Below the pieces are notes generated by a model, which worked only from the letters and a program-made list of their open reading frames with translations, made no database searches and was not told where the DNA came from. 64,000 bases of DNA from the NCBI GenBank assembly GCA_963674745.2, contig CAXXDV010000003.1, forward strand, positions 2,464,001-2,528,000, given 5' to 3'. Below, in pieces: positions 32,507 to 57,485 of the stretch; position 1 is the first letter of the stretch; each line of letters starts with the position of its first letter. Origin of the DNA: Desulfosudaceae bacterium. GTDB taxonomy: Bacteria > Desulfobacterota > Desulfobacteria > Desulfobacterales > Desulfosudaceae. The position numbers and the translations under genes were made by a program.

Positions 32507-32523
32507 AGCCTGACTCCAGTTTT

Positions 32524-32730: not shown

Positions 32731-32885
32731 GCTAAAATCCTTTTTATTGGTTGTTTTCGTTGTCTTAGAATTTACGCGAGCGTGTCTTTGGCTGAAGAGG
32801 AGATCGTTTCATCAATCGTCAATGTCCCGGATTCATCTATTCTTCTCCGTGTCATCCATTGTGAGAATTACCGGGGGAATAATCT

Positions 32886-33500
32886 CTAACCTACATCAAT
32901 ACTTCTAAAGCCGCTTAACTTCTCCAGTCTTCCAAGAAAATGATAGGCAAACCCGAATGGTTTGAATCGAACACCCAGCATGCTGAAACTGATCAGCTCG
33001 ATAATTGTTTGGGTTTCAGAGAGTGTATCCATATAGGCAAAATCAACAGCAATAGGCCATGTTTGTATTTTCCCTCTTACCCAAGTGGGATACCCTGCTG
33101 CGTTCAAACTTTCCATTTCTTTATCAACATCTTTAACTAAGAGCCCCAGGTGCTGAGCCACTGTCCTGCCTTCAGGATCAAGGCTTTGCTTGTAAAAGTC
33201 TGAGCCTTCACCCGGCTCAAGAAGTTCGAGGTCAACCCCCTGATATTTGGCCAGACCGACCTTCCCGCGAAAGCTTCTCGGTGTACCGTGCTCATCCCAT
33301 CGCGCGAGGCTACCGGCTGAAATGAAAAACGGCCCGATTCCCATCATTTCAAGCCGTTTAGCAGCTTCTTCCACGTCTGGCACTACCAGGCCGAGTTGAT
33401 GTATTTGAGGCAGGCTGTGTTTCTCTCGAAATTCGGCTGCAAGGTTATTGACAGATTTTTTAAAGTTCTCTGCCGCAAGCAGGTCGTCTAAAAGCAACAT
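32886..33500 (-). CDS. VOC/glyoxalase-like (methylmalonyl-CoA epimerase-like) protein
   Basis: HQLGLVVPD, LELLEP, QHLGLLV, IIELI. Confidence 0.78.
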   Translation of the reverse strand: MLLLDDLLAAENFKKSVNNLAAEFREKHSLPQIHQLGLVVPDVEEAAKRLEMMGIGPFFISAGSLARWDEHGTPRSFRGKVGLAKYQGVDLELLEPGEGSDFYKQSLDPEGRTVAQHLGLLVKDVDKEMESLNAAGYPTWVRGKIQTWPIAVDFAYMDTLSETQTIIELISFSMLGVRFKPFGFAYHFLGRLEKLSGFRSIDVG

Positions 33501-33611
33501 TGGTTCCCCTAATTTTTTTTAGTCATTTATGGCGATATGCCCGGAAGCCCCCTGTTTCAGGCGAGAACAATTCATTCAGCAGGGTGTCGGTTGTCTCTTC
33601 TTCAGGGCCTA

Positions 33612-34646
33612 TTAATTTAGGTTCTCCAGAGTCCGGGCGATTATAATATTCACGACCCTGTCGTTTATTTCCCCTTCACTTATTACTAATTCATAGAGTT
33701 CCAGATCATCTATAAGCGCACTGATGAACTTTTCATCTGAAACCGCTTTTGCCAGTATCGTTTTGTCTTTACGGTCTGCAATATGGGTTTCAACAAGTTT
33801 GGCAAACATGGGAGTTTTAACGTATTTTTTTGTAATAGCCCTTGCTGTTTTCTTCGTGCCTTCTTTTGAAGGACCGGATTCAATTGCGATCATCATTAAC
33901 TCGTTATCTGAAGTAAGAAAATCAAGGATCGCTTCATCCTTATATGTCTGCTTTGCACGATTTCGTATGCTCGTTCGGGCCACGTCAATATTATCAGGAT
34001 GTAATGGGTCAGCATTATAATATTTATCGTTTTTAACAAATTCTTCCAGGTTTTCTAATATCTTGCGGGGGATCTTTGCCAGCTCACCATTCACCATAAA
34101 TGCTTTCAGGTTGCCCCCTGTTTCCAAATGGATGGAAAATATAACCTCGGTTTTATCATGGGCTTTATAAGACATGTTAATCTGTTGATACATTTTGGGA
34201 AGGCGCACATATTCCTCTTTATCCGGTATTTCAGGATCAGTAATGAGTTGTGATGTTGTCGTTATGTCACCGGTTTCAAGGGCAACAGAAGTCTTCGCAC
34301 TGATAATGGCATCCCGGTCATCTGCCGGCCAGGGGAAGTCCATGACCATGTACAGATCCATGTCATTCGAGTTGTATTGCCTGAGAACTTTTGAGCTTAT
34401 TACGCCATCCATCCATTCCTTCATTACCGGTGTGTCCCTAAGGACTGCACCGATCGCTGCCATGCTGGCATTGATAACTGCAGTGGCCTTGAATGCCTTG
34501 TATCTCGAGCCTTCAACATCTCGTGAGTAGGTTATGATACCATCATTATCTTTTTCAATTTCCCAATCAACAGCACCTGTTGCCGGCTGCAAAAGAAGCG
34601 CTAAGGTAAAACAAATGATACCTGTGTATACGCTTAAATTTTTCAT
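33612..34646 (-). CDS. Secreted START-domain lipid-binding protein
   Basis: Signal peptide; W.IEKDNDGI..YSR, KAFKA, W, FPWPADDRD START motifs; helical C-terminal extension. Confidence 0.75.
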   Translation of the reverse strand: MKNLSVYTGIICFTLALLLQPATGAVDWEIEKDNDGIITYSRDVEGSRYKAFKATAVINASMAAIGAVLRDTPVMKEWMDGVISSKVLRQYNSNDMDLYMVMDFPWPADDRDAIISAKTSVALETGDITTTSQLITDPEIPDKEEYVRLPKMYQQINMSYKAHDKTEVIFSIHLETGGNLKAFMVNGELAKIPRKILENLEEFVKNDKYYNADPLHPDNIDVARTSIRNRAKQTYKDEAILDFLTSDNELMMIAIESGPSKEGTKKTARAITKKYVKTPMFAKLVETHIADRKDKTILAKAVSDEKFISALIDDLELYELVISEGEINDRVVNIIIARTLENLN

Positions 34647-34704
34647 AATAGTTCCTTATACTTTTGTGTGGTGGTGCTGATCCTGAAGCAATGGCAGGGG
34701 GTTT

Positions 34705-35547
34705 CTATTTCATAGCTTTTTCGGGTAATCGGATTTTATTCATTACTAACCCTGTTATGATATAATTAAGCACCGGGCTCAGCCTTGACATGATATCCAT
34801 GAATTTCGCGTCCATCCCTACCATAAGTCTTTTTTTATTTTTAATTATCGCTCTTACGATCTTCTCCGCGCATTCTTCAGGTGTTGTTCTGAAAATAATA
34901 TCGGAAGACTTCACAAGATATTCTTTATTCATATTTTCATTAACACCCTTCACAAAACGCATATTTCTGGCAATATTGGTTTTAATCCCCCCGGGGTGAA
35001 CCGACGTGACATGAATGTTACTTGTCCTTAGTTCCTGGACCAGGGTCTCATTAAACCCCCTTACCGCGTATTTAGCACTGTTGTAGGGGCCGTTATGCGG
35101 GAAAGGCACCACGCCGTTAATACTCGAGATATTGACAATATTTGCTTCAGGGCGTTTCCTTAAATGCGGCAGAAACGCCTTGGTGCCATACACCACCCCC
35201 CAAAAAACAATGTTAAAACACCATTCAAAATTTTCATAAGAAATGTCTTCCAGGCTGTCGTGGACAGCTACGCCGGCATTATTGATGATAATATCAACCT
35301 GGCCGTGTTCATGCACAACATAATCAGCCCACTCAACCACCTGTTCTCTGTCTGATACATCGAGGGTAAACGTGCTGACCTTAATACCGCTTACTTTAAT
35401 CATATCAGCCGTCTTTTTCAGTTCATCTTCATTAATATCTGAAATAGCCAGATGGCACCCCCTGGCCGCAAGGTTTAACGCAAGGCACCGGCCGATTCCG
35501 GATCCGGCGCCTGTAATTGCCGCTACTTTATTCTTCAAGTTTTTCAT
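34705..35547 (-). CDS. SDR oxidoreductase
   Basis: TGAGSGIG, NNAG, YNSAK, HPGGI; ATG 35547 with AGGAG RBS. Confidence 0.9.
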   Translation of the reverse strand: MKNLKNKVAAITGAGSGIGRCLALNLAARGCHLAISDINEDELKKTADMIKVSGIKVSTFTLDVSDREQVVEWADYVVHEHGQVDIIINNAGVAVHDSLEDISYENFEWCFNIVFWGVVYGTKAFLPHLRKRPEANIVNISSINGVVPFPHNGPYNSAKYAVRGFNETLVQELRTSNIHVTSVHPGGIKTNIARNMRFVKGVNENMNKEYLVKSSDIIFRTTPEECAEKIVRAIIKNKKRLMVGMDAKFMDIMSRLSPVLNYIITGLVMNKIRLPEKAMK

Positions 35548-35569
35548 AATGCTATGGTTCTCCTTTTTT

Positions 35570-36610
35570 TTAAAGCAGCTTGTCACAGAGAAACGACACC
35601 TGGTCCTTGACGATGGTTTCGAAAAACTCGCCCACGTAGATGTCGAAATGGCCGGCGTCGTAAACGCGGACGTCCACGTTGGGCAGGCCTTTCGCAAAGT
35701 CGATGGTGGGACCGGCAGGGGCCACCGAGTCTTTGGAACTCACACAGATGAGGGCGGGACATTTGAGATGGCGCATGTATTTGCCCGGCACGTCGAGACC
35801 GATGCGCAGGGCGAATCTGCCCGCCACGCCATTGGCCGAATGCGTTCCTGTGGGCAGCCGCATGCTCCCCACGAACCGGGTCGTTTTCTCCTGTTCTTCA
35901 AAATCACCAAGTGAAACGTGGGCCGGCAGCTCGATGCGCTTGCTCGCGAAAAGTTTATAAAGTCTTGAGAGCTGCGCTGAAAATGTCGTGCCCGGCGGCA
36001 GCAGCGTGAGAATGCCTTTGACTACATCCGGCGCGGTCATTAATGCCGGTGTACCCGGAGTGCCCACGAGGGGTACGAGCAGCGGCTTGAACCCCACCCA
36101 GGCCATTAGCTGGTCGATGATGGCTATTGTACCGCTTCCCAGCATGCTCATAATTCCCAGTGCGCGCACCGAAGCGGGACCGCTCGTAAAAGGGCATTGG
36201 GAAATCACCGCGGCCACACCTCCGTCCTCGGCCCCCACCTTGATTACATGTCCTCCCGAAAAGGACGTGCCAAACAGGGCGATGCGCTCCGTGTCGATGA
36301 AAGACAGGGAGCGAGCGTATCTCAGCGCCGCGTGCCAGTCCTGCCGTTGCCGTTTGATGTCGAGCAGGTACCGGGGATTTCCCTCGCTGGAGCCGAAATG
36401 CCGATAGTCAAAAACAAGGGCCGCAAAACCCGCCTGGCTGAAACGCTCTGCATAGGCGTCCAACCGCATCTCGCGGATAGAGCCCAGGCCATGGGCCAAA
36501 ATAACCAGCGGCGCCCGCTCTATCCCCTCCGGGCGATAAAGCCAGGCGCTGCACCTAATTCCCAGGGATTCAAACGAAACATCTGTCCTGTTAAAGATAT
36601 GAGAAGACAT
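35570..36610 (-). CDS. Alpha/beta hydrolase
   Basis: AHG, FDYRHFG.S.G.PR, GTSFSGG nucleophile elbow, D and GHF. Confidence 0.85.
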   Translation of the reverse strand: MSSHIFNRTDVSFESLGIRCSAWLYRPEGIERAPLVILAHGLGSIREMRLDAYAERFSQAGFAALVFDYRHFGSSEGNPRYLLDIKRQRQDWHAALRYARSLSFIDTERIALFGTSFSGGHVIKVGAEDGGVAAVISQCPFTSGPASVRALGIMSMLGSGTIAIIDQLMAWVGFKPLLVPLVGTPGTPALMTAPDVVKGILTLLPPGTTFSAQLSRLYKLFASKRIELPAHVSLGDFEEQEKTTRFVGSMRLPTGTHSANGVAGRFALRIGLDVPGKYMRHLKCPALICVSSKDSVAPAGPTIDFAKGLPNVDVRVYDAGHFDIYVGEFFETIVKDQVSFLCDKLL

Positions 36611-36626
36611 GCGATCCCTCTTAAAA

Positions 36627-37451
36627 TTATTCCATCAATTTTTTAAATGCAGCGCCTGTCCACATAACCATTCTAATGGGAAAAATCCGGGAAGCCAGGT
36701 CCATCAGTCGGGCGTCTACGCCCACCATTATTCGTTTTTTATTTTTTTTTATGCCGGCAATAATGATCCTGGCGGCTTTTTCCGGTGAGGTTTTAGCGAT
36801 CCGTGAAAAATTCTCGGCAGCCCCGGCCTGATCCTGGCTGCCGGTTGCTGAGTGGTAGAAACGGGAGTTTGACACGATATTGGTGTTGATACCCCCGGGG
36901 TGAACGCTGCTGACATAAACGCCGGTACCGGCCAGTTCCTGCATCAGGGTTTCGCTGAAGGCCCGCACCGCATATTTAGACATGTTGTAAGGGCCGTTGT
37001 GGGAAAAGGGGATCATGCCGTTGATGCTGGAAATATTGACGATATGACCTTTTCCGCGTTTTTTCAGCAGGGGCAGAAAGGCCCGGGTGCCATACACAAC
37101 GCCCCACATGTTGATGTTGATGAGCCATTCAAAATCTTCGTAAGAGACGTTTTCAAGGGATTCAGTAACAGCGACCCCGGCGTTGTTGATAATCACGTCC
37201 ACTCCGCCGTGATGTGCCGCCGCGTCATCGGCATACCGGTACACCTGTTCCCGGTTTCCCGTGTCCACCAGGTGCGTGCTGATGGATGCGCTCAGCCCGC
37301 CGGCCATCCGGGCGGTTTCCTCGAGCCCTTTTTCGTTGATGTCCGACAACGCCAGCCGGCAGCCTTCCTGCGCCAGCCGCATGGCCAGCGCCCGGCCGAT
37401 CCCCGAACCCGCACCGGTAATGGCAACCACCTTGCTTTCCAGTGATTCCAT
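36627..37451 (-). CDS. SDR oxidoreductase (paralog of 34705-35547)
   Basis: TGAGSGIG, SSINGMIPFSHNGPYNMSK. Confidence 0.9.
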   Translation of the reverse strand: MESLESKVVAITGAGSGIGRALAMRLAQEGCRLALSDINEKGLEETARMAGGLSASISTHLVDTGNREQVYRYADDAAAHHGGVDVIINNAGVAVTESLENVSYEDFEWLININMWGVVYGTRAFLPLLKKRGKGHIVNISSINGMIPFSHNGPYNMSKYAVRAFSETLMQELAGTGVYVSSVHPGGINTNIVSNSRFYHSATGSQDQAGAAENFSRIAKTSPEKAARIIIAGIKKNKKRIMVGVDARLMDLASRIFPIRMVMWTGAAFKKLME

Positions 37452-37489
37452 CGTTTATCCTTCTCATTTATTATGTCTAGAGATTTATT

Positions 37490-38332
37490 TTAATTCTGCT
37501 CATGAGTCGATGTTAAATACATCTTAATATTTTCCGCCTTGGAATAAGTTCCATATAAAGGGATTCCTTGTGGTATAAGGTTTTTGCCTGGCTCAGCATC
37601 CCCAATCATAATTCGGATACTTCCTCTTATATTTGTCGTAGAAGGTTGCTTTTGATCTTTAGGATCAGTTCCAGGCCTTCCAGATACAGATCTCACAGTG
37701 ATAACCCTTGGCCCTATTGATGGCGGTTTAAGGAGGAAGAGGGGACCGTCCATTGGCCATTCTTGGGTTATCCATACAGGTGCTGGTATTTGTTCAGGTG
37801 TAAATTCAAGGCGGATTCTTGTTTGGCCCTTATCGACAACTTCTCCTGTCCAGGAATTTCCTGATTGCTTCAGCGTTACGCTATCAGCAAGATATTTGGG
37901 ATGCCCCATGGTACGTCCGGCCCAAACTGGTACCCACTTGCTTTCCGGCATCGTAAGACAATACCAGCCCGCTTCACCTTTATAGGAACATCGGATCTTA
38001 ATATATGCGAGTTGGTAAGGGGTGAGCGGCCATGGCCCGACCTCAATATTATCCAAAACACCTACCATTACCATGGGATGATCGGGCATATTAAATTGCT
38101 CAGGCAGAAGTTTTCTGTAAAGGGTTAAGTCTTTCGGTTCAACCAGAGCAGTTATATTTTGTTGTGCTCTAAAATTATTTTGCGTTGAAGCGGCCATATG
38201 CATAGCTTTTTCTGCAAGATCGCCTTCAATTATCGAATACTGCCCGTTGGCGGTACGATTGTAAAAGAAAATCGATAAACCTAACAATATAATCAAAGAA
38301 AGACATCCCATTACTAATAGCTTTTTTTTCAT
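37490..38332 (-). CDS. Acetoacetate decarboxylase-like superfamily protein with N-terminal anchor
   Basis: LRKLLP-like segment, Y...M, AGRTMGHPK Schiff-base Lys motif; N-terminal TM/signal. Confidence 0.65.
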   Translation of the reverse strand: MKKKLLVMGCLSLIILLGLSIFFYNRTANGQYSIIEGDLAEKAMHMAASTQNNFRAQQNITALVEPKDLTLYRKLLPEQFNMPDHPMVMVGVLDNIEVGPWPLTPYQLAYIKIRCSYKGEAGWYCLTMPESKWVPVWAGRTMGHPKYLADSVTLKQSGNSWTGEVVDKGQTRIRLEFTPEQIPAPVWITQEWPMDGPLFLLKPPSIGPRVITVRSVSGRPGTDPKDQKQPSTTNIRGSIRIMIGDAEPGKNLIPQGIPLYGTYSKAENIKMYLTSTHEQN

Positions 38333-38389
38333 TTTACTTGTCTCCTTTTTTATTAAATATAAAGAACGCCTGATTGAATCAATAACTAA

Positions 38390-38446
38390 ACCATATGTGA
38401 CCGCTAAGTATTGACCATATGTGAATATAATTTGACATTTTGTGAA
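38390..38446 (-). promoter_or_regulatory. Conserved island promoter/operator, copy 2
   Basis: Minus strand TTCACAAAATGTCAAATTATA-TTCACATATGGTCAATAC...TATGGT, facing the 38332 gene run. Confidence 0.8.
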
Positions 38447-38560
38447 AATATGAATTTAAAAAATACTGTGCGATACAGAAAAAGCATAAAGTACAAATGT
38501 TTATCGTGGGATTGATGCTGCGGAATACGGGAAGCGAGACGGGAGACGTTTGCAGGAACC

Positions 38561-39610
38561 CTAAAAGGAATGATTCTGCCGGTACTCACCGGGGGTAAAA
38601 CCCGTCCATTTTTTAAATGCCCGGTTAAACGCACTTTGCTCGGAGTAGCCGAGCAGGAATGTAATATCGATAATAGGTATGGGGGATTGTTCGAGCAGCT
38701 GTATGGCGTGCTCTCTTTTTACCTTATCCAGTATGTCCTGATATGTTACGCCTTCTTTGTTTAACTTGATCTGAAGGCTTCTTTTGCTCATGGCAAACTG
38801 ACCGGAAATGGTTTCTATGTCTGTCTTCCCGGAAAGCAAATTCTGAATGATGGCGGTTTCAACCTCTCCGGAAAACAGGTCTTCACGATATATCTTTTTT
38901 TGAAGTTTTTCAGCATATGACTTAAGCGTGTCGAGGATTTCAGCATTGGCGACCAGGACAGGAAGATCCAGATACTTTTTATTAAAGGTCATCTTATTTT
39001 CCGGCTGATTGAACAGCACGGGTATTTTAAAAATACGGTCATGCTCTTTCGTGTCTGTTGGAGACGCATGAATAAACTGAACGCTGTCAAGACTGATCTC
39101 TTCCCCGGTCAGGCGGGTTAACAGATTAATATAATATGCAAAATGGCCTTCAATAAATTGTCGAAGTTCATTCATATCGGTAATTTGATATTGCAATTCA
39201 AGAGACAGGGATGCAGTACTTCCTTTCTCGGAGAACACAGGTATGCATAAATCATGCATCAGGGGGTAATACTTGCAGAAATTGGTCAATGCTTCTCCAA
39301 GGGTTGGAGAGTTAAACGTGATCACATGCATGGCGTCCATAACATAATCGAATACTTCTCCTAGGTGCAGCCCTAAATCGGGGTCATGAATGAGATTCAG
39401 GAGTTCAGTTGCCAAATAGTGACACTTATGGGCGGGTAACCGCTCATTAGGGGCCTTAAGTATATCTGGATCAAAACCCATTCTTTTAAAAAATATCAAG
39501 GGATCAATACCAAACCTGTCTCCCTCCTTGATAAGTATATTAATAAAATCAACCGAAACACTCGGTTCTTTTATGGATCGGGTTCGGCTTTCAGTCAACT
39601 CATTCGACAT
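38561..39610 (-). CDS. AraC family regulator (OruR/Arabinose_bd_2 type)
   Basis: GLHLGE, SPTLGEAL, C-terminal LLGYSEQSAFNRAFKKWTGFTPGEYR; start set at ATG 39610. Confidence 0.92.
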   Translation of the reverse strand: MSNELTESRTRSIKEPSVSVDFINILIKEGDRFGIDPLIFFKRMGFDPDILKAPNERLPAHKCHYLATELLNLIHDPDLGLHLGEVFDYVMDAMHVITFNSPTLGEALTNFCKYYPLMHDLCIPVFSEKGSTASLSLELQYQITDMNELRQFIEGHFAYYINLLTRLTGEEISLDSVQFIHASPTDTKEHDRIFKIPVLFNQPENKMTFNKKYLDLPVLVANAEILDTLKSYAEKLQKKIYREDLFSGEVETAIIQNLLSGKTDIETISGQFAMSKRSLQIKLNKEGVTYQDILDKVKREHAIQLLEQSPIPIIDITFLLGYSEQSAFNRAFKKWTGFTPGEYRQNHSF

Positions 39611-39706
39611 ATTCGATCTCTTCTTGATGGCATGTTGGTCTGTTTTTCTAAAAATACGCCGCACTTATTATTTTCAGGATATCAATCTATATTTTAAATT
39701 CATTTT

Positions 39707-39763
39707 TTCACAAAATGTCAAATCTTATTCACATTTGGTCAATACACAGGGTTCAAATATGCT
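39707..39763 (+). promoter_or_regulatory. Conserved island promoter/operator, copy 3
   Basis: TTCACAAAATGTCAAATCTTA-TTCACATTTGGTCAATAC...TATGCT. Confidence 0.8.
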
Positions 39764-39943
39764 TTAGATTACTGATTCAACCTGACCTTTTTTAAAAGTA
39801 TTAAACAATTCATAAGCTTCAAACCAGGGCAAAAACAGGAAAACGGGAAAAAAATGAAGCCCATATCAACAGAAAAAACGCCTTTAACACAGAGCCGTTC
39901 GTAACGGCTGCTTGACGCTATAAAAGGATGGCGTCAGGCCCGG

Positions 39944-40744
39944 TTGAAAATCTGGCTGGATATGCATATCGTGGGAAGCCATTTAAGACGGTTGGGCCCT
40001 CTGAGAGTTACCATCGGCGGCGGTTCAATGTATCTGAGTCTGCCCTTGTTTCTGTTCGCTCACCTGGTGTTTATTGAACTGCTTTTAAACCGGATATTAA
40101 CGCCGTTACTGGGCCTTCAGAAGCTGAAAACAACCAATTACATCGTCCTCGACCGCCACCGGACAAAAGGGTTGTCCCGGTTTGACAAATTAAATTGTGT
40201 GTTTTGCGGCTATGCCAACGGTATTTCGGTATTATTGAACGAAAAAATCTGTCAACTTGCTGAACGCAAAAAAGAGCTGGGATCCTTTAGTCCATCATAC
40301 AACATTGTTTTGTTTATAATTGTGGCTGTCTTTCTGCCATTTATGGTAGTTGTGAAATTTGCAGGCATGAACATCATTTACGATATCCTTGTGTCACGTC
40401 CCCTTTACATGCATAGAACCCGGACAAAAGATATCAAGCGTAAAATTCTCAGCACCGGTTCTGCTGATATGTTTAATCAGAACACCTTATTTGATATGCT
40501 GATTCTTCATTCAAAAATAATCGTCATCAGGTTGATAGACGCGCTTGAGCAAATTGAATCAGCATGGTGCCCCCTGAAACATAAGAAAGTCGGAGAAAAC
40601 GTTAAGTATCCGTTACACCACCGGAACTTCTTTGAACCGGATGATCTTGAAGCCATGAGAAGTTCGCTTTATCTGAACGGCACTGTTTCAGACAAAAAAC
40701 CCCTGGTTGAAATTAAAAATCCCGCATATCCTTTAGACAGATAA
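39944..40744 (+). CDS. Hypothetical membrane protein with CxxC and WCPxKH motifs
   Basis: YIVLDRH..KLNCVFCGYANG and E..WCPLKH; TM segments; start uncertain. Confidence 0.65.
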   Translation: MKIWLDMHIVGSHLRRLGPLRVTIGGGSMYLSLPLFLFAHLVFIELLLNRILTPLLGLQKLKTTNYIVLDRHRTKGLSRFDKLNCVFCGYANGISVLLNEKICQLAERKKELGSFSPSYNIVLFIIVAVFLPFMVVVKFAGMNIIYDILVSRPLYMHRTRTKDIKRKILSTGSADMFNQNTLFDMLILHSKIIVIRLIDALEQIESAWCPLKHKKVGENVKYPLHHRNFFEPDDLEAMRSSLYLNGTVSDKKPLVEIKNPAYPLDR

Positions 40745-40767
40745 ACGCAGTTTCACGACTGCCCGAA

Positions 40768-40797
40768 CCCGCATATTTCATGAAATAACCGGGCTAA
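40768..40797. repeat. Palindromic REP / collapsed MITE ends
   Basis: CCCGCATATTTCATGAAATAACCGGGCTAA. Confidence 0.55.
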
Positions 40798-40833
40798 ATC
40801 CCGCATCTTCCCAGACTTTCTAAAGCTCATTTA

Positions 40834-40890
40834 TTCACAAAATGTCAAATCATATTCACATCTGGTCAATACTTAGAGCTCAAATATGTT
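40834..40890 (+). promoter_or_regulatory. Conserved island promoter/operator, copy 4
   Basis: TTCACAAAATGTCAAATCATA-TTCACATCTGGTCAATAC...TATGTT. Confidence 0.8.
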
Positions 40891-40943
40891 CTAGGGTAAT
40901 CATACAACCGAGCTTTTTTACAAATTGGAATAAGGAGAGCCTC

Positions 40944-41765
40944 ATGTTTAAAAACAAAACCATACTCATCACCGGCGGGTCATCCGGGCTTGGACTGGGG
41001 TTGGCTCAGGCACTTTTAGAAAGAGGCGCGCGCCTGATTCTTCTGGCCCGCACGCCAAAAAAACTGGAACAGGCAAAAGAGCGCCTGCTGAAAAACGTTC
41101 CCAACGGAAATGTAGATATCGTCCCCGTGGATGTAAGCGACCGCGAGACGTTGCACGAAGCGCTTGACGATGCTCTGAAAAGGCACCCCTCCCTGGACAT
41201 GGTCATCAACAATGCCGGGATATTAAGGGAAGGTTATTTTGAAAAACTGGCGGTAACGGATTTTGAAGAGATGTTCGGCGCCAACTACTTCGGCTGTCTA
41301 TATATAACGCGGATCACCCTGCCTTACTTGAAAAAATCCCGGGGCCGCCTGATCAACGTTGCATCTGTGGCGGGATTAACCGGCGGATTTGGACTTTCCG
41401 CATACGGCTCATCCAAATACGCGCTTGTTGGATTATCTGAAACATTACGCTGCGAACTAAAGCCACAGGGTGTTACCGTCCAGGTGGTATGCCCCCCGGA
41501 ATTTCTATCTCCCATGGTTGAGGAATTGGATACCTATCGGACACCGGAAAACCTGGCGCATACAATTATGATTCCCAGGCTGTCCCTGGATACTCTGGTG
41601 AAAGATACAGTAAAAGGCATTGAAAAAAACAAATTCAGGATTATCCCCGGCTGGCGGACACGATTGATGCTTCTCGGGGCGCAGCACTTTCCCGGTATCA
41701 GCCGTTTTTTTGCCGACCGGGTAATCAAAAAAGCCTATGTCGGTCCCGACCAGCATAATGGTTGA
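40944..41765 (+). CDS. SDR oxidoreductase (3-ketodihydrosphingosine reductase-like)
   Basis: ITGGSSGLG, NYFG, GLSAYGSSK, CPPEF.SP; ATG 40944 after AAGGAG. Confidence 0.85.
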   Translation: MFKNKTILITGGSSGLGLGLAQALLERGARLILLARTPKKLEQAKERLLKNVPNGNVDIVPVDVSDRETLHEALDDALKRHPSLDMVINNAGILREGYFEKLAVTDFEEMFGANYFGCLYITRITLPYLKKSRGRLINVASVAGLTGGFGLSAYGSSKYALVGLSETLRCELKPQGVTVQVVCPPEFLSPMVEELDTYRTPENLAHTIMIPRLSLDTLVKDTVKGIEKNKFRIIPGWRTRLMLLGAQHFPGISRFFADRVIKKAYVGPDQHNG

Positions 41766-41827
41766 AGCGCCCTCATCAGTCTAACGGAAAAGAGAACCAA
41801 AAGGGTTATATGATCTGGATATATACA

Positions 41828-41863
41828 GGGGATCTCTAAAAAAGCAATTTTTAGAGGTGCCTT
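41828..41863. repeat. Palindrome resembling collapsed IS/MITE ends
   Basis: GGGGATCTCTAAAAA-AGCAA-TTTTTAGAGGTGCCTT. Confidence 0.45.
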
Positions 41864-41897
41864 ACCGTTTTAATTACAAAAAGGAGATAAGATCACA

Positions 41898-42677
41898 ATG
41901 AAAACGGCACTCATTACCGGCGCGTCAAACGGCATTGGCCTTGAACTGGCCCGATTGTTTGCAAAAGACAAGATCAATGTCATTCTGGTCGCACGCAGTA
42001 AAGACAAATTGAACCGTATTGCCAGTGATTTTGAGCAGCAGTATGGCATCAAGGCGTTACCTGTCTCTGCCGACCTTTCCAGGCCCGGGTCGAGTCATGC
42101 GCTTTTTGAAGAAATCAGCCAGAACAATCATATGGATGTCGAGTTTCTTGTCAATAATGCCGGGGTTGGCATTTGCGGCACCATAAATGACACCAATATT
42201 GAACAAACATCAGCTATGCTTCAGCTCAATATGGTGAGCCTGGCGGAACTGACCATGCTGTTTCTGCCGGGGATGAAAAAAAAGAGAAGCGGTCGTATTT
42301 TAAATATCGGTTCTACTGCCGGTTATGTAATGCCTCACGGCTATGAAGTTGCCTATGCCGCAACAAAGTCCTTTGTGGTCAGCTTTTCAGAAGGCCTGCA
42401 TTTTGAACTGAAAGGGACGGGCGTTTCCTGTACCCATTTGAGCCCCGGCCCTACTCAAAGCAGTTTCTTTGACACGGCCGGTGCGAAAAGCGATGCCCGG
42501 TTACGGAACATGCTGATGGACACGAGGGTTGTGGCGCAAAAAGGGTACCGGGCAATGATGGCCGGGAAAAAGCACACGATCCCCGGCATTACCAATAAAG
42601 TGTTTGCATTTCTGGCCAGCCGGGTATCTCCATCTCGGAGACTGGTTTATACCTTATCCGGTGCGTTTGTAAAGTAG
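41898..42677 (+). CDS. SDR oxidoreductase
   Basis: TGASNGIG, NNAG, YAATK, PGPT. Confidence 0.9.
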   Translation: MKTALITGASNGIGLELARLFAKDKINVILVARSKDKLNRIASDFEQQYGIKALPVSADLSRPGSSHALFEEISQNNHMDVEFLVNNAGVGICGTINDTNIEQTSAMLQLNMVSLAELTMLFLPGMKKKRSGRILNIGSTAGYVMPHGYEVAYAATKSFVVSFSEGLHFELKGTGVSCTHLSPGPTQSSFFDTAGAKSDARLRNMLMDTRVVAQKGYRAMMAGKKHTIPGITNKVFAFLASRVSPSRRLVYTLSGAFVK

Positions 42678-42819
42678 TGCCCATCCAGAAATTGCTATTT
42701 TGCCCGATTTCTGTGTCAGGCTCAAATTTTAATCTTCGAAATACGACAAGTATTCCTCCGGTTAAAATTTTCGCCTTCCTTGAACTCGAACAAAATATCT
42801 AATCTCTTGACGGACACTA
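42675..42819. mobile_element. MITE-like element starting at the SDR stop codon
   Basis: Imperfect TIRs TAGTGCCCATCCAGAAATT / AATCTCTTGACGGACACTA. Confidence 0.6.
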
Positions 42820-43745: not shown

Positions 43746-44273
43746 ATGACTGAAGACGCAACCATGAACAATCAGAGCAGGCGATCGTTTTTCAAATCGA
43801 GTTTTAAAATGCTTACCGCCATTGGCCTGGGCGGAATATTTTACAGCGCTGCCAGATTTCTCGGTTCTGATTCGACTCCGGAGACAGGCCATAGCCATGC
43901 TTTTGGTGCCTTTCATCCGGACAATGAACGCATGACCGGATCAGGCGGCGGACTTCGCGCCTCAAAGGCCGCTGACGGTCGATATGAACTTGAGACTGAA
44001 TCCGTCCCCGCAGGCGTTGGCGCCGTTGTGTCTGCAGGAAGCCTGCCCATACTGGTAGTCCACGGGACGAACGGTTTCAGGGTATTTAACGCCACCTGCA
44101 CTCATCTTGGATGCCTTGTGAAATGGGATCCGGCGGCCAACATGTTCATCTGCCCCTGCCACGGCGGAAAATATGATGCAAACGGTCAGGTCATTGCCGG
44201 CCCACCTCCGAGTGCCCTTAAAGAACACACCGTTGCTGAAAAAGACGATATGATCAGAATTGCCATCACATGA
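43746..44273 (+). CDS. Rieske [2Fe-2S] protein with Tat anchor
   Basis: SRRSFFK, CTHLGC, CPCHG, GPPP. Confidence 0.93.
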   Translation: MTEDATMNNQSRRSFFKSSFKMLTAIGLGGIFYSAARFLGSDSTPETGHSHAFGAFHPDNERMTGSGGGLRASKAADGRYELETESVPAGVGAVVSAGSLPILVVHGTNGFRVFNATCTHLGCLVKWDPAANMFICPCHGGKYDANGQVIAGPPPSALKEHTVAEKDDMIRIAIT

Positions 44274-45517
44274 CAAAAAACATAATCGACACCTTTTTAA
44301 ACCGCGTTCGAGTCAGGCTGAAAGCAGCCGGTACTGTAAAAGCGCAGATTTTTTCCCGTTCCACCTTACAGCCGGAGAGCCGGCTTGATTACCTGGCCTA
44401 TTCCGGGACAGTCATTGCGGTACTGCTGGTGATTCAGTTTGCAACGGGCGTGCTGCTTTTACTTCATTATGAACCCTTTCCCTCGCGTGCGTTCTCATCT
44501 CTGCTGACCATCAGGAACGATGTTGAGTACGGACTGTTGTTTTCCAACCTTCATTCCGTGGGTTCCAAGCTGATTATACTGGTGATGTTTATTCACATGT
44601 TCAGGATTATGCTGGTTTCTGCCCACCGCGGCCCACGGTCCCCCCAGTGGTATGTCGGCGTTGGTCTCGCTTTTTTAATGCTTTTTACCGGTTTCTCCGG
44701 ATATCTTCTGCCCTGGTCCCAGCAGTCTTTCTGGGCCTGTGTTGTCGGTACCGAGTCGCTTCGCGTTTTTCCCGTCATTGGAAACACCGCCACATGGCTT
44801 CTACGGGGCGGTTCCGAAGTTAACGGCCTGACCCTGACCAGATTTTACTGGCTTCACATCACCCTGCTCCCCATTTCAATCATATACCTGGCATGGCTGC
44901 ACATAAAAATGGTCTGGAGAACAGGCGTGGCCGGGCCGGCAAAATCTTTTGCGGACGTGGCCACCGAAAATTGCGTGGGCTGCGGCAAATGCCGACAGGT
45001 CTGCTCGTTTAACGCGGTTTCCATGAAAGAGGATGGGGACAAAAAAGACAAACCGCTGATTGATCCTTCCAGATGCAATGGTTGCCGGGCCTGTGTGGAG
45101 GAATGCCCCAACGCCTGCATCTTCCTGTTCAAGGGAACAGAACCGTGCCGGTTGGAGCCCATATTTCCGGATAATATTGTCAGGAGAATGCTTGCGGTCT
45201 TCATTACAGTGGTAGTTCTTTTCGGATTTTCGTATTTCGGCCACGCTTTTCACAAGATCCCGGCCGACCCCATGCTGACACCGGAACGGATAAAGCCCGA
45301 CTGGTATTTCCTGGGGGCGTATCAATTCCTGAAAGCACTGCCAAGCGAAACCTGGGGGATACTGGCAATGCTGGCAATCTGTATCCTGATTGCGATTCTG
45401 CCGATTATTGACAAGTCAGGTTCCAGAAATCCCCGGCGTCGACCTGTATATATGCTGCTTGTTATTGGCGGTATTTCAGGGTTTATCATATTCACCTTCT
45501 GGGGATGGGTTTCCTGA
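44270..45517 (+). CDS. Cytochrome b (b6 + subunit IV fused) with inserted 2x[4Fe-4S] ferredoxin
   Basis: Four heme His, GYLLPW.Q.SFWA, CVGCGKCRQVC and CNGCRACVEECP, IKPDWYF (PEWY-type) motif. Confidence 0.9.
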   Translation: MTKNIIDTFLNRVRVRLKAAGTVKAQIFSRSTLQPESRLDYLAYSGTVIAVLLVIQFATGVLLLLHYEPFPSRAFSSLLTIRNDVEYGLLFSNLHSVGSKLIILVMFIHMFRIMLVSAHRGPRSPQWYVGVGLAFLMLFTGFSGYLLPWSQQSFWACVVGTESLRVFPVIGNTATWLLRGGSEVNGLTLTRFYWLHITLLPISIIYLAWLHIKMVWRTGVAGPAKSFADVATENCVGCGKCRQVCSFNAVSMKEDGDKKDKPLIDPSRCNGCRACVEECPNACIFLFKGTEPCRLEPIFPDNIVRRMLAVFITVVVLFGFSYFGHAFHKIPADPMLTPERIKPDWYFLGAYQFLKALPSETWGILAMLAICILIAILPIIDKSGSRNPRRRPVYMLLVIGGISGFIIFTFWGWVS

Positions 45518-45518
45518 C

Positions 45519-46316
45519 ATGAAAAAATATTTTTTCCTGCTATTCCTCCTGCTCGTCCTGGTTTCAAAAACAACGGCACAGGACAGATTATTTCTGCTCC
45601 AGGACAACTGCATTAAATGCCATCTGTGGTGCGAGACAAAAAGCGGCGAAAACTCGGTTGTCAAATGGAAAAGGAGCGTTCATTTCAGGCCGGATACCGC
45701 CTGCGCCGACTGCCATGGCGGCGATCGGCTTTTATATCTGGATTTTAAAGCCGGACACATGGGAATGCCTGACAGAAACCAATCAGTAGGGATGTGCGAA
45801 CAGTGTCATGAGCAGGCTGTACGTGATTTCATAGGCCGCAAGGTGTCGCAGACAAAAAACAATAAGTGCACGGTAAGCTGCGTTGACTGCCACGGGCATC
45901 ACCAGATTGAAAAACCGGATGCTCCGGCCATGTTCCAAAGAACCTGCCGTAAATGTCATTCTCCGGACAAAGCCGCCGCGATTGCAAACACGATACAAAA
46001 AACAGAATCCCGCCTGGCATTTGTTGAGGCGGAAATAAAGTCCCACGAAACATCCGGACTGCCGGTTCTGACCCCGAAGGAAATGCTGAAAGATATTCAA
46101 CGGCAGTATGCGCGGGGATTTCACAAAAATACGTTTTCAAAACAGGAACCGTTTCTGACTGGAGAATTGTCATATGCAATAGATGATCTTGAAGACCGTT
46201 TGGGCCGTTCAGCCCCGAACCAATGGCATATTCAGGGGTATATGGTCATAGCCTTTCTGGGCCTGATCTGTGTTTTGCTGACGGCCTACTTAGCGACCCT
46301 GAAAAAGAAAGAATAA
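45519..46316 (+). CDS. Pentaheme cytochrome c with signal peptide and C-terminal TM anchor
   Basis: CIKCH, CADCH, CEQCH, CVDCH, CRKCH; start ATG 45519. Confidence 0.88.
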   Translation: MKKYFFLLFLLLVLVSKTTAQDRLFLLQDNCIKCHLWCETKSGENSVVKWKRSVHFRPDTACADCHGGDRLLYLDFKAGHMGMPDRNQSVGMCEQCHEQAVRDFIGRKVSQTKNNKCTVSCVDCHGHHQIEKPDAPAMFQRTCRKCHSPDKAAAIANTIQKTESRLAFVEAEIKSHETSGLPVLTPKEMLKDIQRQYARGFHKNTFSKQEPFLTGELSYAIDDLEDRLGRSAPNQWHIQGYMVIAFLGLICVLLTAYLATLKKKE

Positions 46317-46335
46317 AAAATTTGGGAGGAAAATC

Positions 46336-46674
46336 ATAAACGACACATGCCAAGACAAGACAAACTGCCCCTGGACAGGAAGGATCGCCCTGATCCTCGC
46401 CCTTGTTGCTGTTTTTATGGCGTTTAAGGCCGGGCATTCCTCAAAAATCAACGCCATAACCAGCATCAATGAGATGATAACGGACAAGGTCGTACCCCAG
46501 ATGGCCAGGGCCACCGAAAGGGATGTCATCGGCCATATCTACGATCTGAAACGGACCATGGTTACCCTTGAGGAGATAAAGGAGACCACGGCCAACGAGG
46601 ACGTCAAAGCCATGGTGGACAAAATCCGCAAGGACATTGAGGAACTTAACGTCAAACTCTTTGTGCATGAATAG
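46336..46674 (+). CDS. Small single-TM coiled-coil protein (probable ATA start)
   Basis: GGAGGA RBS 5 nt before an in-frame ATA at 46336, which adds TM segment RIALILALVAVF to the 46417 ORF. Confidence 0.6.
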   Translation: MNDTCQDKTNCPWTGRIALILALVAVFMAFKAGHSSKINAITSINEMITDKVVPQMARATERDVIGHIYDLKRTMVTLEEIKETTANEDVKAMVDKIRKDIEELNVKLFVHE

Positions 46675-46679
46675 GGGGT

Positions 46680-48545
46680 ATGGCCATGCCTGATAAGGAC
46701 AAGCCGGAAAACATTTTCCAAAAACCGATCAACCGCCGTAATTTTTTAAAAATAAGCGCTGCCGCAGCAGCGGCCGGCGTAATGGGGCCCGGACTTTCAG
46801 GCTGTGCCCCGGAGATTTACCGGGGCCATTACCCGGATGTGCCCGAAAACCATGTCTCGCTTTCGCCCAACGGGAAAAGTGTGCTCATCCTGGGCGGTGG
46901 TTTCGGCGGCATGCACGCGGCCTGCGAACTGCTTGACCGGGGTTTTGAAGTCACGATTATCGAAAAATCAAGCATGCTCGGGGGAAAACTCAAGAGTTGG
47001 CGGGATCCCGGGTTCGGCATCCCGCCCACGGATGATCCCAACTGGAAGGGATATCCCAGGGATCACGGTGCGCACGCGGTGTGGGGGTTTTACAACAACC
47101 TGAGAGAATTCATGGGCAGACACGGCTATAAACTGGCGACCTTCCCCCGGGAATCCACCATGTACAATTTTCTGGATAAAGACGGTTCCCAGGCTGTCAT
47201 GGGTTCTGCACCCACATGGCCCGGCCCCCTGGCAAATCTTCAAAGAGGCCTTGAGACAAAACATGCCATTGAAAAATTAACCGGAGAAGATCCGGGCGCC
47301 ATGCTGTACATGAACAAAATCTTTGGCTTTGACTATGAGAGCAAGAAGCAGCGGGCCTATCTGGACAGCATTTCTTTTCCCGAGTGGGCGCGACTGGTAG
47401 GCATACCGGACAAGCTGATTTATAAGTTCTTCGGTCCCACGTCTGAAATGGCCATGTTCGACCACATCGATAACACCAGCGCGCTCTATATGCTGACAAC
47501 GCTGAGCCTGGGCTCGGGCAGTTATAGGGACATGTGCGTTGATATTTTCACCCACCCTCCCGGCGAAACCTATGCCGAGCCCATTGAGCGCTACATCCTG
47601 GCCAAAGGCGGAAAGATCATTTATGACATGCCGGTCATCAAGGTCAATCATGACGGCAGAAAGATTAAGAGCGTCCTTGCCGGTGATGAAAATTTTGTCC
47701 CGGGTGTGAAAAACTGGAAATGTAATGTCTGCGGATCAACCTTTCCTTCGCCGGCCAAGCCGTTCAGATGCCCGGTATGCGGTGCCCCCATTACCCAGAT
47801 CAGGGCCCTGTCTTCAGGCCCGCCTAAAGAATACCTGGCGGATTATTATGTGGTTGCCATGGACACGCCCGGCGCCAAACAGGTGGTGGCAAAATCGGGG
47901 CTGCTGGGGGACACCTATTTTGACAATATCATGAAGCTGGATGCGACCGGCGTCTATGTTGTCAATTTATGGTATGCCGACTGCAATGCATGGGAGCGCC
48001 GTTTTCCCAAACATGGTGATTTTTTCGCTTCCGGATTCAAGTTTCTGGGCATCACGCTCAACTGGGCGGTTTCTCGAAAATCCAAAGACGGACAAGACAG
48101 ACAATACCTTGTACCGGATTATCAGGGCAAAAACATCAACGTGATTGAAACCCAGATAGCCAATACCGAGCGGGTGGAGAACAAATCAGACGAAGAAATC
48201 GCCCGGCTGGTTCACGAGGAGTTATTGTGCGTGATGCCGGATTTACCCGTGCCGACGGATTTTTATGTCAACCGGTGGGACACCTATTCACCCCAGCGGA
48301 CCGGGTACGAGGCCCTGCGACCCGATATTCAGAGCCCGGTAGACAACCTGTTTTTCATCGGCGACTGGGTTCTGACAAACCATGAAAGCGTTTATATGGA
48401 GAAAACCAACGTGGCCTCAAAAATGGTGACCAACCTGTTACTGGACAAGATCGGACAAAAACAGGGCCGTATGAAAATACTGAAAAGCGGCGATCCCGAC
48501 CTTACGATGAGGGTACTCAAAGCGTTAAACAATCCATACCCGTAA
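46680..48545 (+). CDS. Tat-exported lipoprotein FAD oxidoreductase, CrtU/zeta-carotene desaturase-like, with rubredoxin-like insert
   Basis: NRRNFLK Tat motif, LSGC lipobox, GGGFGG...LGGK, HGAHAVWGFYNNL, CNVC-x12-CPVC, NLFFIGDWV..YMEK. Confidence 0.8.
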   Translation: MAMPDKDKPENIFQKPINRRNFLKISAAAAAAGVMGPGLSGCAPEIYRGHYPDVPENHVSLSPNGKSVLILGGGFGGMHAACELLDRGFEVTIIEKSSMLGGKLKSWRDPGFGIPPTDDPNWKGYPRDHGAHAVWGFYNNLREFMGRHGYKLATFPRESTMYNFLDKDGSQAVMGSAPTWPGPLANLQRGLETKHAIEKLTGEDPGAMLYMNKIFGFDYESKKQRAYLDSISFPEWARLVGIPDKLIYKFFGPTSEMAMFDHIDNTSALYMLTTLSLGSGSYRDMCVDIFTHPPGETYAEPIERYILAKGGKIIYDMPVIKVNHDGRKIKSVLAGDENFVPGVKNWKCNVCGSTFPSPAKPFRCPVCGAPITQIRALSSGPPKEYLADYYVVAMDTPGAKQVVAKSGLLGDTYFDNIMKLDATGVYVVNLWYADCNAWERRFPKHGDFFASGFKFLGITLNWAVSRKSKDGQDRQYLVPDYQGKNINVIETQIANTERVENKSDEEIARLVHEELLCVMPDLPVPTDFYVNRWDTYSPQRTGYEALRPDIQSPVDNLFFIGDWVLTNHESVYMEKTNVASKMVTNLLLDKIGQKQGRMKILKSGDPDLTMRVLKALNNPYP

Positions 48546-55688: not shown

Positions 55689-57035
55689 ATGATTGAATTC
55701 AGCAGAATACGGTTTGGTTTGGTTTTTGCCGTTGTTTTTTGTGTGTTGTTGAGCGGTTGCAAAATCAGCGGTAATGTCAGGGATAACGGGGTTGGTTTAC
55801 AAGGCATCACCGTTACCCTTACCGGCAAGCCGGACAGGCCGACCAATATTGATCATCTCATCACAACAACGGATAGTCGCGGATACTTTGAGTTTGATGA
55901 AATACCGGATGGAGATTATATCGTTACGCCTTCAAAAGAGGGAATGATCTTTGAACCACCACAGCGAAAAGTCTTCTTAACCAATAAAGAACCAGAAGAG
56001 AACCTGACCTTTGAAGCGATCAAAAGCTCGGGCCCCATGAATTTCTACTATGGCAACCTGCATAGCCACTCGAGCTATTCAGATGGTGAGGGTACAGCAG
56101 CCCAGGCTTTTGCCTGGGCAAGGGATAAAGCCGGGCTCGATTTTTATGCCATCACAGATCATGCTTTCATGTTGGTCCACGATACCAACATCGATTTTAA
56201 CCTGGTTGATGAATGGGCTGATGTCAAAAGACAGGCCGATATTTTTTCGCAACAGGATGTATTTGTCGGCATCATCGGCTTTGAATGGAGTCACCCTTTA
56301 CTGGGGCATGTATGTGTTTATGGAACAGAAGATTATACCACTTTTCTCTTAACCGGTGATATGTATTGGTTCTACAGGTGGCTGGCGGAACGGCCCGAAG
56401 CCCTGGCCCAGTTCAATCACCCCGGAAGAGAACCATTGAAATTCAATTGTTTTGCCCTTGAAACAGACGTCCAGGATAATATGTGCGCCCTTGAAACCGG
56501 GAATAAGGATGTCGGCAATAATGACGAAGAATACCTGAACTATTATCACGAGGTGCTTGATAAAGGCTGGAAGGTCGCCCCCACCAGCAACCAGGACAAT
56601 CACAGCCTGGCAACAAATTCTCACCGCACCGTAGTGATTGCACGGGAACTCAGCCGTGATGGAATTTCAGAAGCCATGCGGTCACGCCGCATGTATTCAT
56701 CCGACGATCCCAACATAAAGATTACATATCACTATCAAGACAAATGGATGGGATCGGAAATCGCGGTTGACGCCGCCGCCGTCACGCTCACCATAAACAT
56801 CGAAGACGATGAGCCCATTACCAAAGTTCAACTGATTACCAACGGGGGAAGAATTATTCAGGAAATAACCCCGGCAGCAGGGCAGACAGCCGTGTCCTGG
56901 AATCCGACCGTGATGCTGGGCGGGACAGAATGCTATTTTTATGTTCAGGTTACCGAACAAAATGAGCTTGATGATGATGAGGGCAACACCGAGCAAATTG
57001 CGGTTTCAGCCCCTTTATGGTTCACGCCTATCTAA
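55689..57035 (+). CDS. Lipoprotein, CehA/McbA-like PHP metallohydrolase with N-terminal prealbumin-like domain
   Basis: LSGC lipobox, GNLHSHSSYSDG, ITDH, GFEWS, GH, NHP, DNH. Confidence 0.8.
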   Translation: MIEFSRIRFGLVFAVVFCVLLSGCKISGNVRDNGVGLQGITVTLTGKPDRPTNIDHLITTTDSRGYFEFDEIPDGDYIVTPSKEGMIFEPPQRKVFLTNKEPEENLTFEAIKSSGPMNFYYGNLHSHSSYSDGEGTAAQAFAWARDKAGLDFYAITDHAFMLVHDTNIDFNLVDEWADVKRQADIFSQQDVFVGIIGFEWSHPLLGHVCVYGTEDYTTFLLTGDMYWFYRWLAERPEALAQFNHPGREPLKFNCFALETDVQDNMCALETGNKDVGNNDEEYLNYYHEVLDKGWKVAPTSNQDNHSLATNSHRTVVIARELSRDGISEAMRSRRMYSSDDPNIKITYHYQDKWMGSEIAVDAAAVTLTINIEDDEPITKVQLITNGGRIIQEITPAAGQTAVSWNPTVMLGGTECYFYVQVTEQNELDDDEGNTEQIAVSAPLWFTPI

Positions 57036-57057
57036 TTGTCAATAACCGGTTTAGCAA

Positions 57058-57095: not shown

Positions 57096-57103
57096 CTATC
57101 AAT

Positions 57104-57481: not shown

Positions 57482-57485
57482 CGGA

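Follow-up and report, generated by a model that had tools for sequence, protein, structure and literature searches.

Why would the cytochrome b of a Rieske-type complex carry a ferredoxin domain of its own, on which side of the membrane would this domain lie, and which way would electrons pass through it? These questions are raised by a gene of a Desulfosudaceae bacterium (GenBank assembly GCA_963674745.2) located in a stretch of 64,000 nucleotides (nt) of contig CAXXDV010000003.1 (positions 2,464,001 to 2,528,000), referred to here as the window and used for all coordinates below unless another locus is named. The gene (44270..45517, + strand, like all features described here) has an ATG start and an uninterrupted frame of 415 codons. 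An earlier reading of the letters alone, made without database searches (the sequence-only reading), had proposed a ferredoxin inserted at the point where cytochrome b6 and subunit IV are split, wiring heme bH to soluble partners for quinol-based bifurcation or confurcation. The analysis presented here assigns the gene product, from its sequence, to a Rieske/cytochrome b complex of the menaquinol type, as its cytochrome b subunit, with a ferredoxin domain predicted to occupy the cytoplasmic loop between helices D and E.

Cytochrome b core and the D-E insert

The two parts of the cytochrome are recognized by Pfam as Cytochrome_B (residues 40-218, E 1.1e-40) and Cytochrom_B_C (residues 331-412, E 1.5e-19). 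Between them, two 4Fe-4S families score above their thresholds, Fer4 with 41 bits (cut-off 21.1, E 1.3e-10) and Fer4_7, at residues 234-282, with 39 bits (cut-off 27). No NCBIfam model reached its cut-off, the highest scores being those of the b-type cytochrome 'ExtP' (168 bits for a threshold of 290) and of cytochrome b6 (151.5 for 325). Helices A-D (residues 38-218, 44381..44923, with helix limits taken from the structural model described below) include the heme ligands H95 and H109 in helix B, with 13 residues in between, and H196 and H211 in helix D, with 14. All four are invariant in 31 sequences. They are followed by the D-E insert (residues 219-297, 44924..45160), a ferredoxin fold of the 2x[4Fe-4S] type with two cluster motifs, CVGCGKCRQVC (residues 235-245, nt 44972-45004) and CNGCRACVEECP (residues 269-280, nt 45074-45109). 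The remaining part (residues 298-415, 45161..45514, helices E-G) is subunit-IV-like and carries the Qo motif PDWY (residues 343-346, nt 45296-45307), in which P343, W345 and Y346 are invariant.

The sequence-only reading had noticed the b6-type spacing of the helix D His pair, both cluster motifs (at about 44950-45130) and the subunit-IV-like part with PDWY, and had proposed a search for the architecture Cytochrome_B + Fer4 + Cytochrom_B_C; all of these are borne out, with Pfam matches to each of the three domains. Its placement of the insert at the b6/subunit IV split point is correct as a position, but there is no true gene boundary here: the window protein is a fused seven-helix cytochrome b and the 'split point' is only a positional analogy. 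Its suggestion that heme ci is absent also agrees with our alignments. The residue that falls on the heme-ci cysteine of the CxGG b6-type proteins L071 and L082 is Y44 of the segment 'AYSG', and the same position is occupied by H in the relative L001 and by Y in L003. The window cytochrome b thus appears to lack the heme-ci cysteine, and its interpretation as a heme-ci-containing b6 was ruled out by the tyrosine at the CxGG cysteine position. The residue aligned with a conserved His of plant bc1, which we take to be the Qi-site His (His201 in bovine numbering), is W216. Since this tryptophan is nearly invariant, a classical Qi site is not evident.

Comparison with solved structures gave a consistent picture. 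The match to bc1 cytochromes b is split into residues 37-223 and 307-396, b6f subunit IV chains align with residues 296-401 (E 6e-12), and the nearest solved relative of residues 234-287 is RnfB (9eri_B). Every defining feature of the Rieske/cytochrome b superfamily that was tested was found, which places the predicted protein in that superfamily. Like bc1 and b6f cytochromes b it has both Pfam domains, the four heme His and PDWY, together with an adjoining Rieske protein of the twin-arginine translocation (Tat) type and a c-type cytochrome subunit; with b6 it also shares the 14-residue helix D spacing. Unlike them, it carries about 79 residues with two [4Fe-4S] motifs in the n-side D-E loop, and its partner is a pentaheme cytochrome c rather than c1 or f. 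As judged from the missing CxGG cysteine and the single fused polypeptide of seven helices, a form shared by the full-length members of its family, it is not a three-heme cytochrome of the b6f type.

In bc1 and b6f structures, the N-terminus and the D-E connection face the cytoplasm (n side), and the ef loop, which holds the Qo motif, is on the p side. In the window protein, lysine and arginine account for 13 of 52 residues in the n-side loops versus 8 of 103 in those of the p side (insert excluded; helices from the model). Both partners carry export signals, of the twin-arginine type in the Rieske protein and of the cleavable Sec type in the cytochrome c, and the Qo site would accordingly face the periplasm. 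Given the homology to the bc1/b6f helices and the positive-inside rule, the ferredoxin insert is predicted to lie on the cytoplasmic side, where the sequence-only reading had also put it. A periplasmic insert, which that reading had regarded as fatal to its idea, was ruled out by the helix homology and the loop bias, and the two exported partners point the same way.

An AlphaFold2 model computed from a 26-sequence alignment has a predicted local distance difference test score (pLDDT) of 84.6 and a predicted template modelling score (pTM) of 0.86, with block means of 77-89 over the insert. Foldseek matched it to bc1 cytochromes b (TMq 0.64-0.70), the insert being covered by no solved chain. The insert starts 8 residues past the end of helix D, which bears the heme bH ligand H211, and ends at the start of helix E. 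The tethers are short, with 16 residues separating the end of helix D from the first Cys and 17 lying between the last motif residue and helix E; these are chain lengths and not cluster-heme distances. The single high pTM and the pLDDT values of the insert are consistent with a fixed position of the modelled insert on the membrane core.

Conservation and phylogeny of the insert

Relatives were collected by a word-indexed search of 5.8 billion proteins, which returned 65. The top 33 are 45-59% identical or are fragments of such proteins, and every one of the 33 contains both CxxCxxCxxxC motifs at the same site, between a 'PWSQQS' segment and the Qo motif. Alignment of 26 family members shows no variation at any of the eight Cys, at N270, R273 and P280 or at the four heme His. 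The set of ferredoxin ligands for 2x[4Fe-4S] is therefore complete and the insert is predicted to bind two [4Fe-4S] clusters. Recurrence of the architecture in 33 clusters from several sources rules out an assembly chimera. Two members of the collection look aberrant: P0028, in which a helicase-like N-terminus is joined to cytochrome b from helix B on and which is probably a misassembly, and P0031, a truncated or frameshifted copy that ends within helix E.

Only one of the 178 other cytochromes b retrieved has a CxxCxxCxxxC motif, in single copy. This protein, P0069, is a fused cytochrome b, 33% identical, with a Ser/Pro-rich D-E insert that includes one CxxCxxCxxxCP, and is found elsewhere in the tree. 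It suggests that the D-E loop was used independently for a Cys-rich insertion.

The family is rare. An exhaustive HMMER search of 1.84 billion representatives clustered at 50% identity found 7659 cytochromes b at E<=1e-3, and among the best 150 of these the family is represented by one full-length protein and four fragments. In contigs sampled at one genome per species, the long form occurred, among the best 80 of 589 relatives, only in three loci, L001, L002 and L003, which belong to metagenome-assembled genomes labelled Deltaproteobacteria or 'uncultured bacterium'. Twelve of 400 other sampled genomes of the phylum gave a match, limited to the N-terminal domain, and the full architecture was found in none of the 400. 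A sequence search with residues 222-300 only returned no match besides the query itself, and a metagenome scan with a single 100-residue query yielded 46 loci with generic ferredoxins, none (0/46) with an adjoining cytochrome b.

A FastTree phylogeny was computed for 122 proteins from the set P0001-P0130, with sequences cut at residue 470; it leaves out P0020, P0028, P0030-P0033 and P0066 (fragments and one chimera), proteins shorter than 330 amino acids (aa), and P0131-P0211. In this tree all 27 full-length members of the family group together (support 100), nested in a larger clade of insert-less fused cytochromes b (support 97). Since all insert-bearing members share this one nested clade and are rare, the insert would represent a single, old acquisition inside one rare lineage. 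Origin by fusion of a 'b6 - ferredoxin - subunit IV' gene trio was also considered; no ferredoxin gene was found in any of ten Rieske/b6 loci examined in the phylum, and the nearest relatives of the ferredoxin-bearing clade are fused, insert-less cytochromes b.

These nearest relatives (30-35% identity) belong to 'Rieske - fused cytochrome b - multiheme c' operons of Geobacteraceae, Desulfuromonadales, Nitrospirota and others. A Rieske gene is located upstream in 13 of 14 insert-less loci and an open reading frame (ORF) with five CxxCH is found nearby in 9 of the 14. They differ from the window in having no ferredoxin insert and, in most cases, an F-type, lower-potential Rieske protein.

The five-gene module and its host

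The cytochrome b gene is part of a conserved module of five genes which specify a Rieske protein, the cytochrome b, a pentaheme cytochrome c, a small helical membrane protein and a Tat lipoprotein flavoenzyme. By tblastn, the complete set is present in L001 and L003, and the short locus L002 has the first three genes, while the window genes flanking the module were not found in these three loci.

The Rieske [2Fe-2S] subunit (43746..44273, 175 aa, Pfam Rieske E 1.9e-11) overlaps the start of the cytochrome b gene by 4 nt and includes a twin-arginine signal/anchor, SRRSFFK, and the boxes CTHLGC and CPCHGGKY, the latter of the G-Y type. Its gene is also located upstream of cytochrome b in L001, L002 and L003, and in all four loci Gly occupies the Ser position of the Rieske box (G-Y signature 4/4). 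A PDWY Qo motif and a G-Y Rieske signature are described as accompanying menaquinol-type complexes (PMC4122944).

The pentaheme cytochrome c (45519..46316, 265 aa) has five CxxCH, an N-terminal signal peptide and a C-terminal membrane helix. Its ATG lies 1 nt past the cytochrome b stop codon and the gene is conserved in L001, L002 and L003. The small single-pass membrane protein that follows (approximately 46333..46674) includes a helical periplasmic domain with an invariant VHE end and has no Pfam family; in L003 it forms a C-terminal fusion to the cytochrome c, in one polypeptide. No ATG, GTG or TTG precedes its membrane helix in the window. The first ATG (46417) is located downstream of the helix and a start there would drop a helix that is kept in the L001 and L003 homologues, which suggests that translation begins at a rare non-ATG codon. 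A GGGAGG site (46324-46329) is followed by in-frame ATC (46333) and ATA (46336).

The flavoprotein (46680..48545, 621 aa) has a Tat signal (RR19-20), a lipobox-like C42 and a rubredoxin-like set of cysteines (C348, C351, C364 and C367). Because of the Tat signal and the lipobox Cys, it is predicted to face the periplasm. It matches Amino_oxidase (Pfam, E 6.2e-32), with an FAD-binding Rossmann motif and the phytoene-desaturase/amine-oxidase fold. The best Foldseek match of its model (pLDDT 83.2) is the plant phytoene desaturase 5mog (E 2e-23, TMt 0.78), and amine oxidases including NicA2 chains come next. Across 34 sequences the lipobox Cys is invariant, as are three of the rubredoxin-like Cys; the fourth of these and RR are nearly so. 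The gene adjoins the module in all three loci of sufficient extent (the window, L001 and L003). The approximately 34 flavoprotein clusters (>53% identity) parallel the approximately 33 cytochrome b clusters, and for 10 of the 32 cytochrome b clusters other than that of the window the longest contig is exactly equal in size to that of a flavoprotein cluster. The flavoprotein was found in none of the 400 other sampled genomes of the phylum.

By analogy with these relatives the flavoprotein would be a dehydrogenase. The amine-oxidase-family flavoproteins NicA2 and Pnao are reported to be dehydrogenases which reduce a cytochrome c, CycN (PMC9396064, PMC12224317); the module flavoprotein shares their superfamily, but it differs in its best fold match, its rubredoxin-like insert, its lipobox Cys and its link to a Rieske/cytochrome b complex. 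A protein-atlas search showed related clusters in Cyanobacteria with a Rieske domain instead of the rubredoxin-like insert. Judging from these sequences, this would be a desaturase-like flavoprotein family with interchangeable one-electron relay domains.

The gene order can vary. In L003 (3631-4482 and 8195-9379) the flavoprotein gene lies upstream of the Rieske gene, and an ORF resembling by eye a MoxR-type AAA+ ATPase ends 1 nt ahead of it. In the window, the regions 30000-42700 and 57000-62000 contain genes for many short-chain dehydrogenases, a START lipid-binding protein, hydrolases and an acetoacetate-decarboxylase-like protein, together with a flavin mononucleotide (FMN) dehydrogenase, an old-yellow-enzyme-type reductase, a thiamine diphosphate (ThDP) enzyme and an AraC regulator. 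None of these neighbours is conserved beside the module in L001 or L003, and at most they may point to a substrate of lipid or hydrophobic nature in this host.

The host genome (99.96% complete) contains dsrA and two rnfD genes above cut-off, and no heme-copper oxidase was found in it. From this gene content the host can be classified as a strictly anaerobic sulfate or sulfite reducer. The same genome carries a further b6-type locus, L082, on contig 3 (about 143.3-146.9 kb), where a split b6 with CxGG precedes a subunit-IV-like protein of 243 aa and a multiheme cytochrome c. A NarJ-type chaperone gene (Pfam Nitrate_red_del) is located directly upstream, the ORF before it resembled an Fe-S beta subunit, with no Pfam match at E<=0.001, and no Rieske gene was seen in the 3.6 kb around. 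L082 may be a molybdoenzyme-linked b6 module.

Known relatives and the direction of electron flow

The attachment of cytoplasmic Fe-S clusters to a membrane cytochrome b has precedents. QmoC of the QmoABC complex of sulfate reducers is a single polypeptide with a di-heme cytochrome b in the membrane and a two-cluster Fe-S domain in the cytoplasm, and connects the menaquinone pool to cytoplasmic redox enzymes; it belongs to an HdrE/NarI-like family and has no Qo site or Rieske partner. Formally closest to the window protein are the 'PDWF-FeS' cytochromes b and functionally closest are the anammox complexes. The 'PDWF-FeS' clade, as outlined by Kao & Hunte in 2014 (PMC4122944), is composed of cytochromes b with 4Fe-4S and MvhD domains, or with ferredoxin and flavin oxidoreductase domains. 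It shares with the window protein a bc-type cytochrome b, a Qo-like motif and covalently joined [4Fe-4S] domains, and is set apart in that description by a fused non-Rieske Fe-S protein, PDWF and MvhD. The window protein instead has a Rieske partner, PDWY, an internal insert and no MvhD match in Pfam. No 'PDWF-FeS' protein occurred among the best 150 HMMER representatives.

The anammox complexes Kuste4569-4574 and Kustd1480-1485, as presented in passages of PMC12954380, resemble the window module in their Rieske/cytochrome b core, multiheme c and n-side Fe-S clusters, the latter being proposed to take low-potential-chain electrons out of the membrane. Their Fe-S clusters reside in a separate NAD(P) oxidoreductase subunit with FAD, whereas those of the window lie inside the cytochrome b. 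The description of the anammox complexes further includes heme cN, an additional heme b that is proposed, a b6 split from a five-helix subunit IV, and a Rieske protein above +300 mV with Ser (PMC12954380); the window module has no NAD(P) module and its Rieske is of the G-Y type. A cytoplasmic Fe-S arm on cytochrome b complexes and a cytochrome b/Fe-S fusion are thus already in print. A ferredoxin domain in the D-E loop of a Rieske-associated cytochrome b, and the pairing of such a module with a Tat-lipoprotein flavo-rubredoxin, were not found described in the full text within reach, most subscription journals being outside it.

Concerning function, we infer electron exchange between the clusters and heme bH, a direction of flow and a ferredoxin partner, with a confidence that differs from part to part. 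We consider it fairly probable that the ferredoxin domain exchanges electrons with heme bH in the first place, as a redox port. The insert would then be a built-in n-side port linking heme bH and quinone chemistry to low-potential soluble carriers such as ferredoxin. An inward, ferredoxin-assisted direction, which we put at somewhat short of even, would carry electrons from reduced ferredoxin through the two clusters to heme bH. Two fates can then be envisaged. In the first, electrons would continue from bH to bL and the Qo site and there meet an electron from a periplasmic branch, running from the rubredoxin-like site of the flavoprotein through the pentaheme cytochrome c to the Rieske cluster, so that menaquinone is reduced. 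This would amount to ferredoxin-assisted reverse operation, or confurcation. In the second, heme bH would reduce menaquinone at the Qi site. Tentatively, and with the balance tilted against it, the whole module may be seen as a quinone-based confurcating/bifurcating machine in which Qo reversibly couples two one-electron branches, a periplasmic branch of lipoprotein flavo-rubredoxin, pentaheme c and Rieske and a cytoplasmic branch of ferredoxin, 2x[4Fe-4S], heme bH and heme bL.

Electron input is favoured over output for three reasons. With no heme-copper oxidase, the host has no evident high-potential sink for forward operation. The relatives of the flavoprotein are dehydrogenases or desaturases, some of which reduce a cytochrome c. 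Finally, the Rieske protein has no potential-raising Ser. The G-Y class is listed by Kao & Hunte as 'Mid-', at about 200 mV (PMC4122944), the Ser is reported to raise the Rieske potential by about 130 mV (PMC12954380, PMC4122944) and values of +303 and +335 mV were measured for the anammox Rieske proteins, in which it is present (PMC12954380). According to a symmetry rule, a higher Rieske potential goes with lower b-heme potentials (PMC12954380). Our own arithmetic with this rule, with menaquinone taken near -70 to -80 mV, gives about -340 mV for bL and -210 mV for bH; on this estimate the b-heme potentials would be less extreme than in the anammox complexes.

Several observations weigh against inward flow or against the port itself. 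Two Rnf complexes already serve ferredoxin oxidation in the host, and the conserved module, as seen in the window, L001 and L003, has no gene for a ferredoxin or NAD(P) partner in the cytoplasm. F stands at the Tyr position, as in the lower-potential class, in 12 of the 13 Rieske proteins encoded next to insert-less relatives, versus G-Y in 4/4 of the family; a higher-class Rieske implies lower b-heme potentials, and electrons leaving through the clusters would then be expected. In AlphaFold3 models of the anammox complexes, an n-side [4Fe-4S] cluster is reported at a distance of 20 A from heme cN, and a further heme b was proposed to bridge the gap (PMC12954380). In the 26 aligned members of the window family there is neither heme ci nor a further invariant His pair, only the four canonical His being invariant.

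The alternative that survives best is forward quinone-based bifurcation, the central idea of the sequence-only reading and also the model proposed for anammox. Menaquinol would be oxidized at Qo, one electron passing via Rieske, pentaheme c and flavoprotein to a high-potential periplasmic acceptor and the other reaching ferredoxin or NAD(P)+ by way of bL, bH and both clusters to yield low-potential reductant, instead of or besides quinone reduction at Qi. The architecture and sidedness fit this scheme equally, the published analogues Kuste4569-74 and Kustd1480-85, with an n-side Fe-S chain, are proposed NAD(P)H producers (PMC12954380), the family Rieske is predicted to be one class above that of most insert-less relatives, which would lower the b-heme potentials, and the nearly invariant W216 leaves no evident classical Qi site. 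We nevertheless consider it rather improbable. The potential-raising Ser is absent, with about 200 mV predicted against +303/+335 mV in anammox, no NAD(P)-binding subunit is present on the n side and the sole flavoprotein of the module has a Tat signal, no high-potential acceptor system linked to the module is evident in a host that lacks heme-copper oxidases, and the fold relatives of the flavoprotein are desaturases and dehydrogenases. Bifurcation to NAD(P)H is thus weakened by the G-Y Rieske (about 200 mV against more than +300 mV), while the confurcation, or ferredoxin input, that the sequence-only reading had also allowed for stays a candidate.

Ferredoxin entry could also be combined with a normal forward Q cycle. 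Electrons from cytoplasmic ferredoxin would reduce menaquinone at Qi, with the clusters in the role proposed for heme cn of b6f, and Qo would run forward to the periplasmic chain. Donation by ferredoxin to heme cn of b6f has long been proposed (PMC5600118), and in the window protein heme ci is absent and the insert occupies the same n-side place. This scheme is quite improbable, as it requires a periplasmic acceptor above the Rieske potential, of which none is evident, brings no energetic gain over the host's own Rnf complexes and depends on a Qi pocket that is not recognizably conserved.

Equally improbable is a ferredoxin domain not wired to heme bH, serving instead in docking, assembly, redox sensing or exchange with an unrelated cytoplasmic partner: the extra heme needed across a comparable gap in the anammox models (PMC12954380) and the lack of a partner gene in the module favour it, but the eight Cys and the motif Pro are invariant at an overall identity of only 44-59%, the insert position is constant in every member and only 16 and 17 residues connect the motifs to helices D and E.

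Exchange of electrons between the low-potential chain of such complexes and soluble cytoplasmic carriers, as in ferredoxin injection and b6f cyclic flow, has been debated for years with no tractable test system, and NAD(P)H production by Rieske/cytochrome b complexes, as proposed for anammox, is debated equally. For testing such a port, a cytochrome b that includes a two-cluster ferredoxin domain in its own chain would offer the simplest system. If the clusters lie too far from heme bH, the finding reduces to an odd domain insertion in a rare gene family. If ferredoxin-assisted reverse operation proves true, it would let a strict anaerobe oxidize a periplasmic substrate too high in potential for direct menaquinone reduction. 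As a confurcating/bifurcating machine, the module would unite ferredoxin, menaquinone and a periplasmic substrate in a single enzyme of a strict anaerobe. With a real port, it would add a new type of link between the menaquinone pool, ferredoxin and periplasmic oxidation in sulfate reducers.

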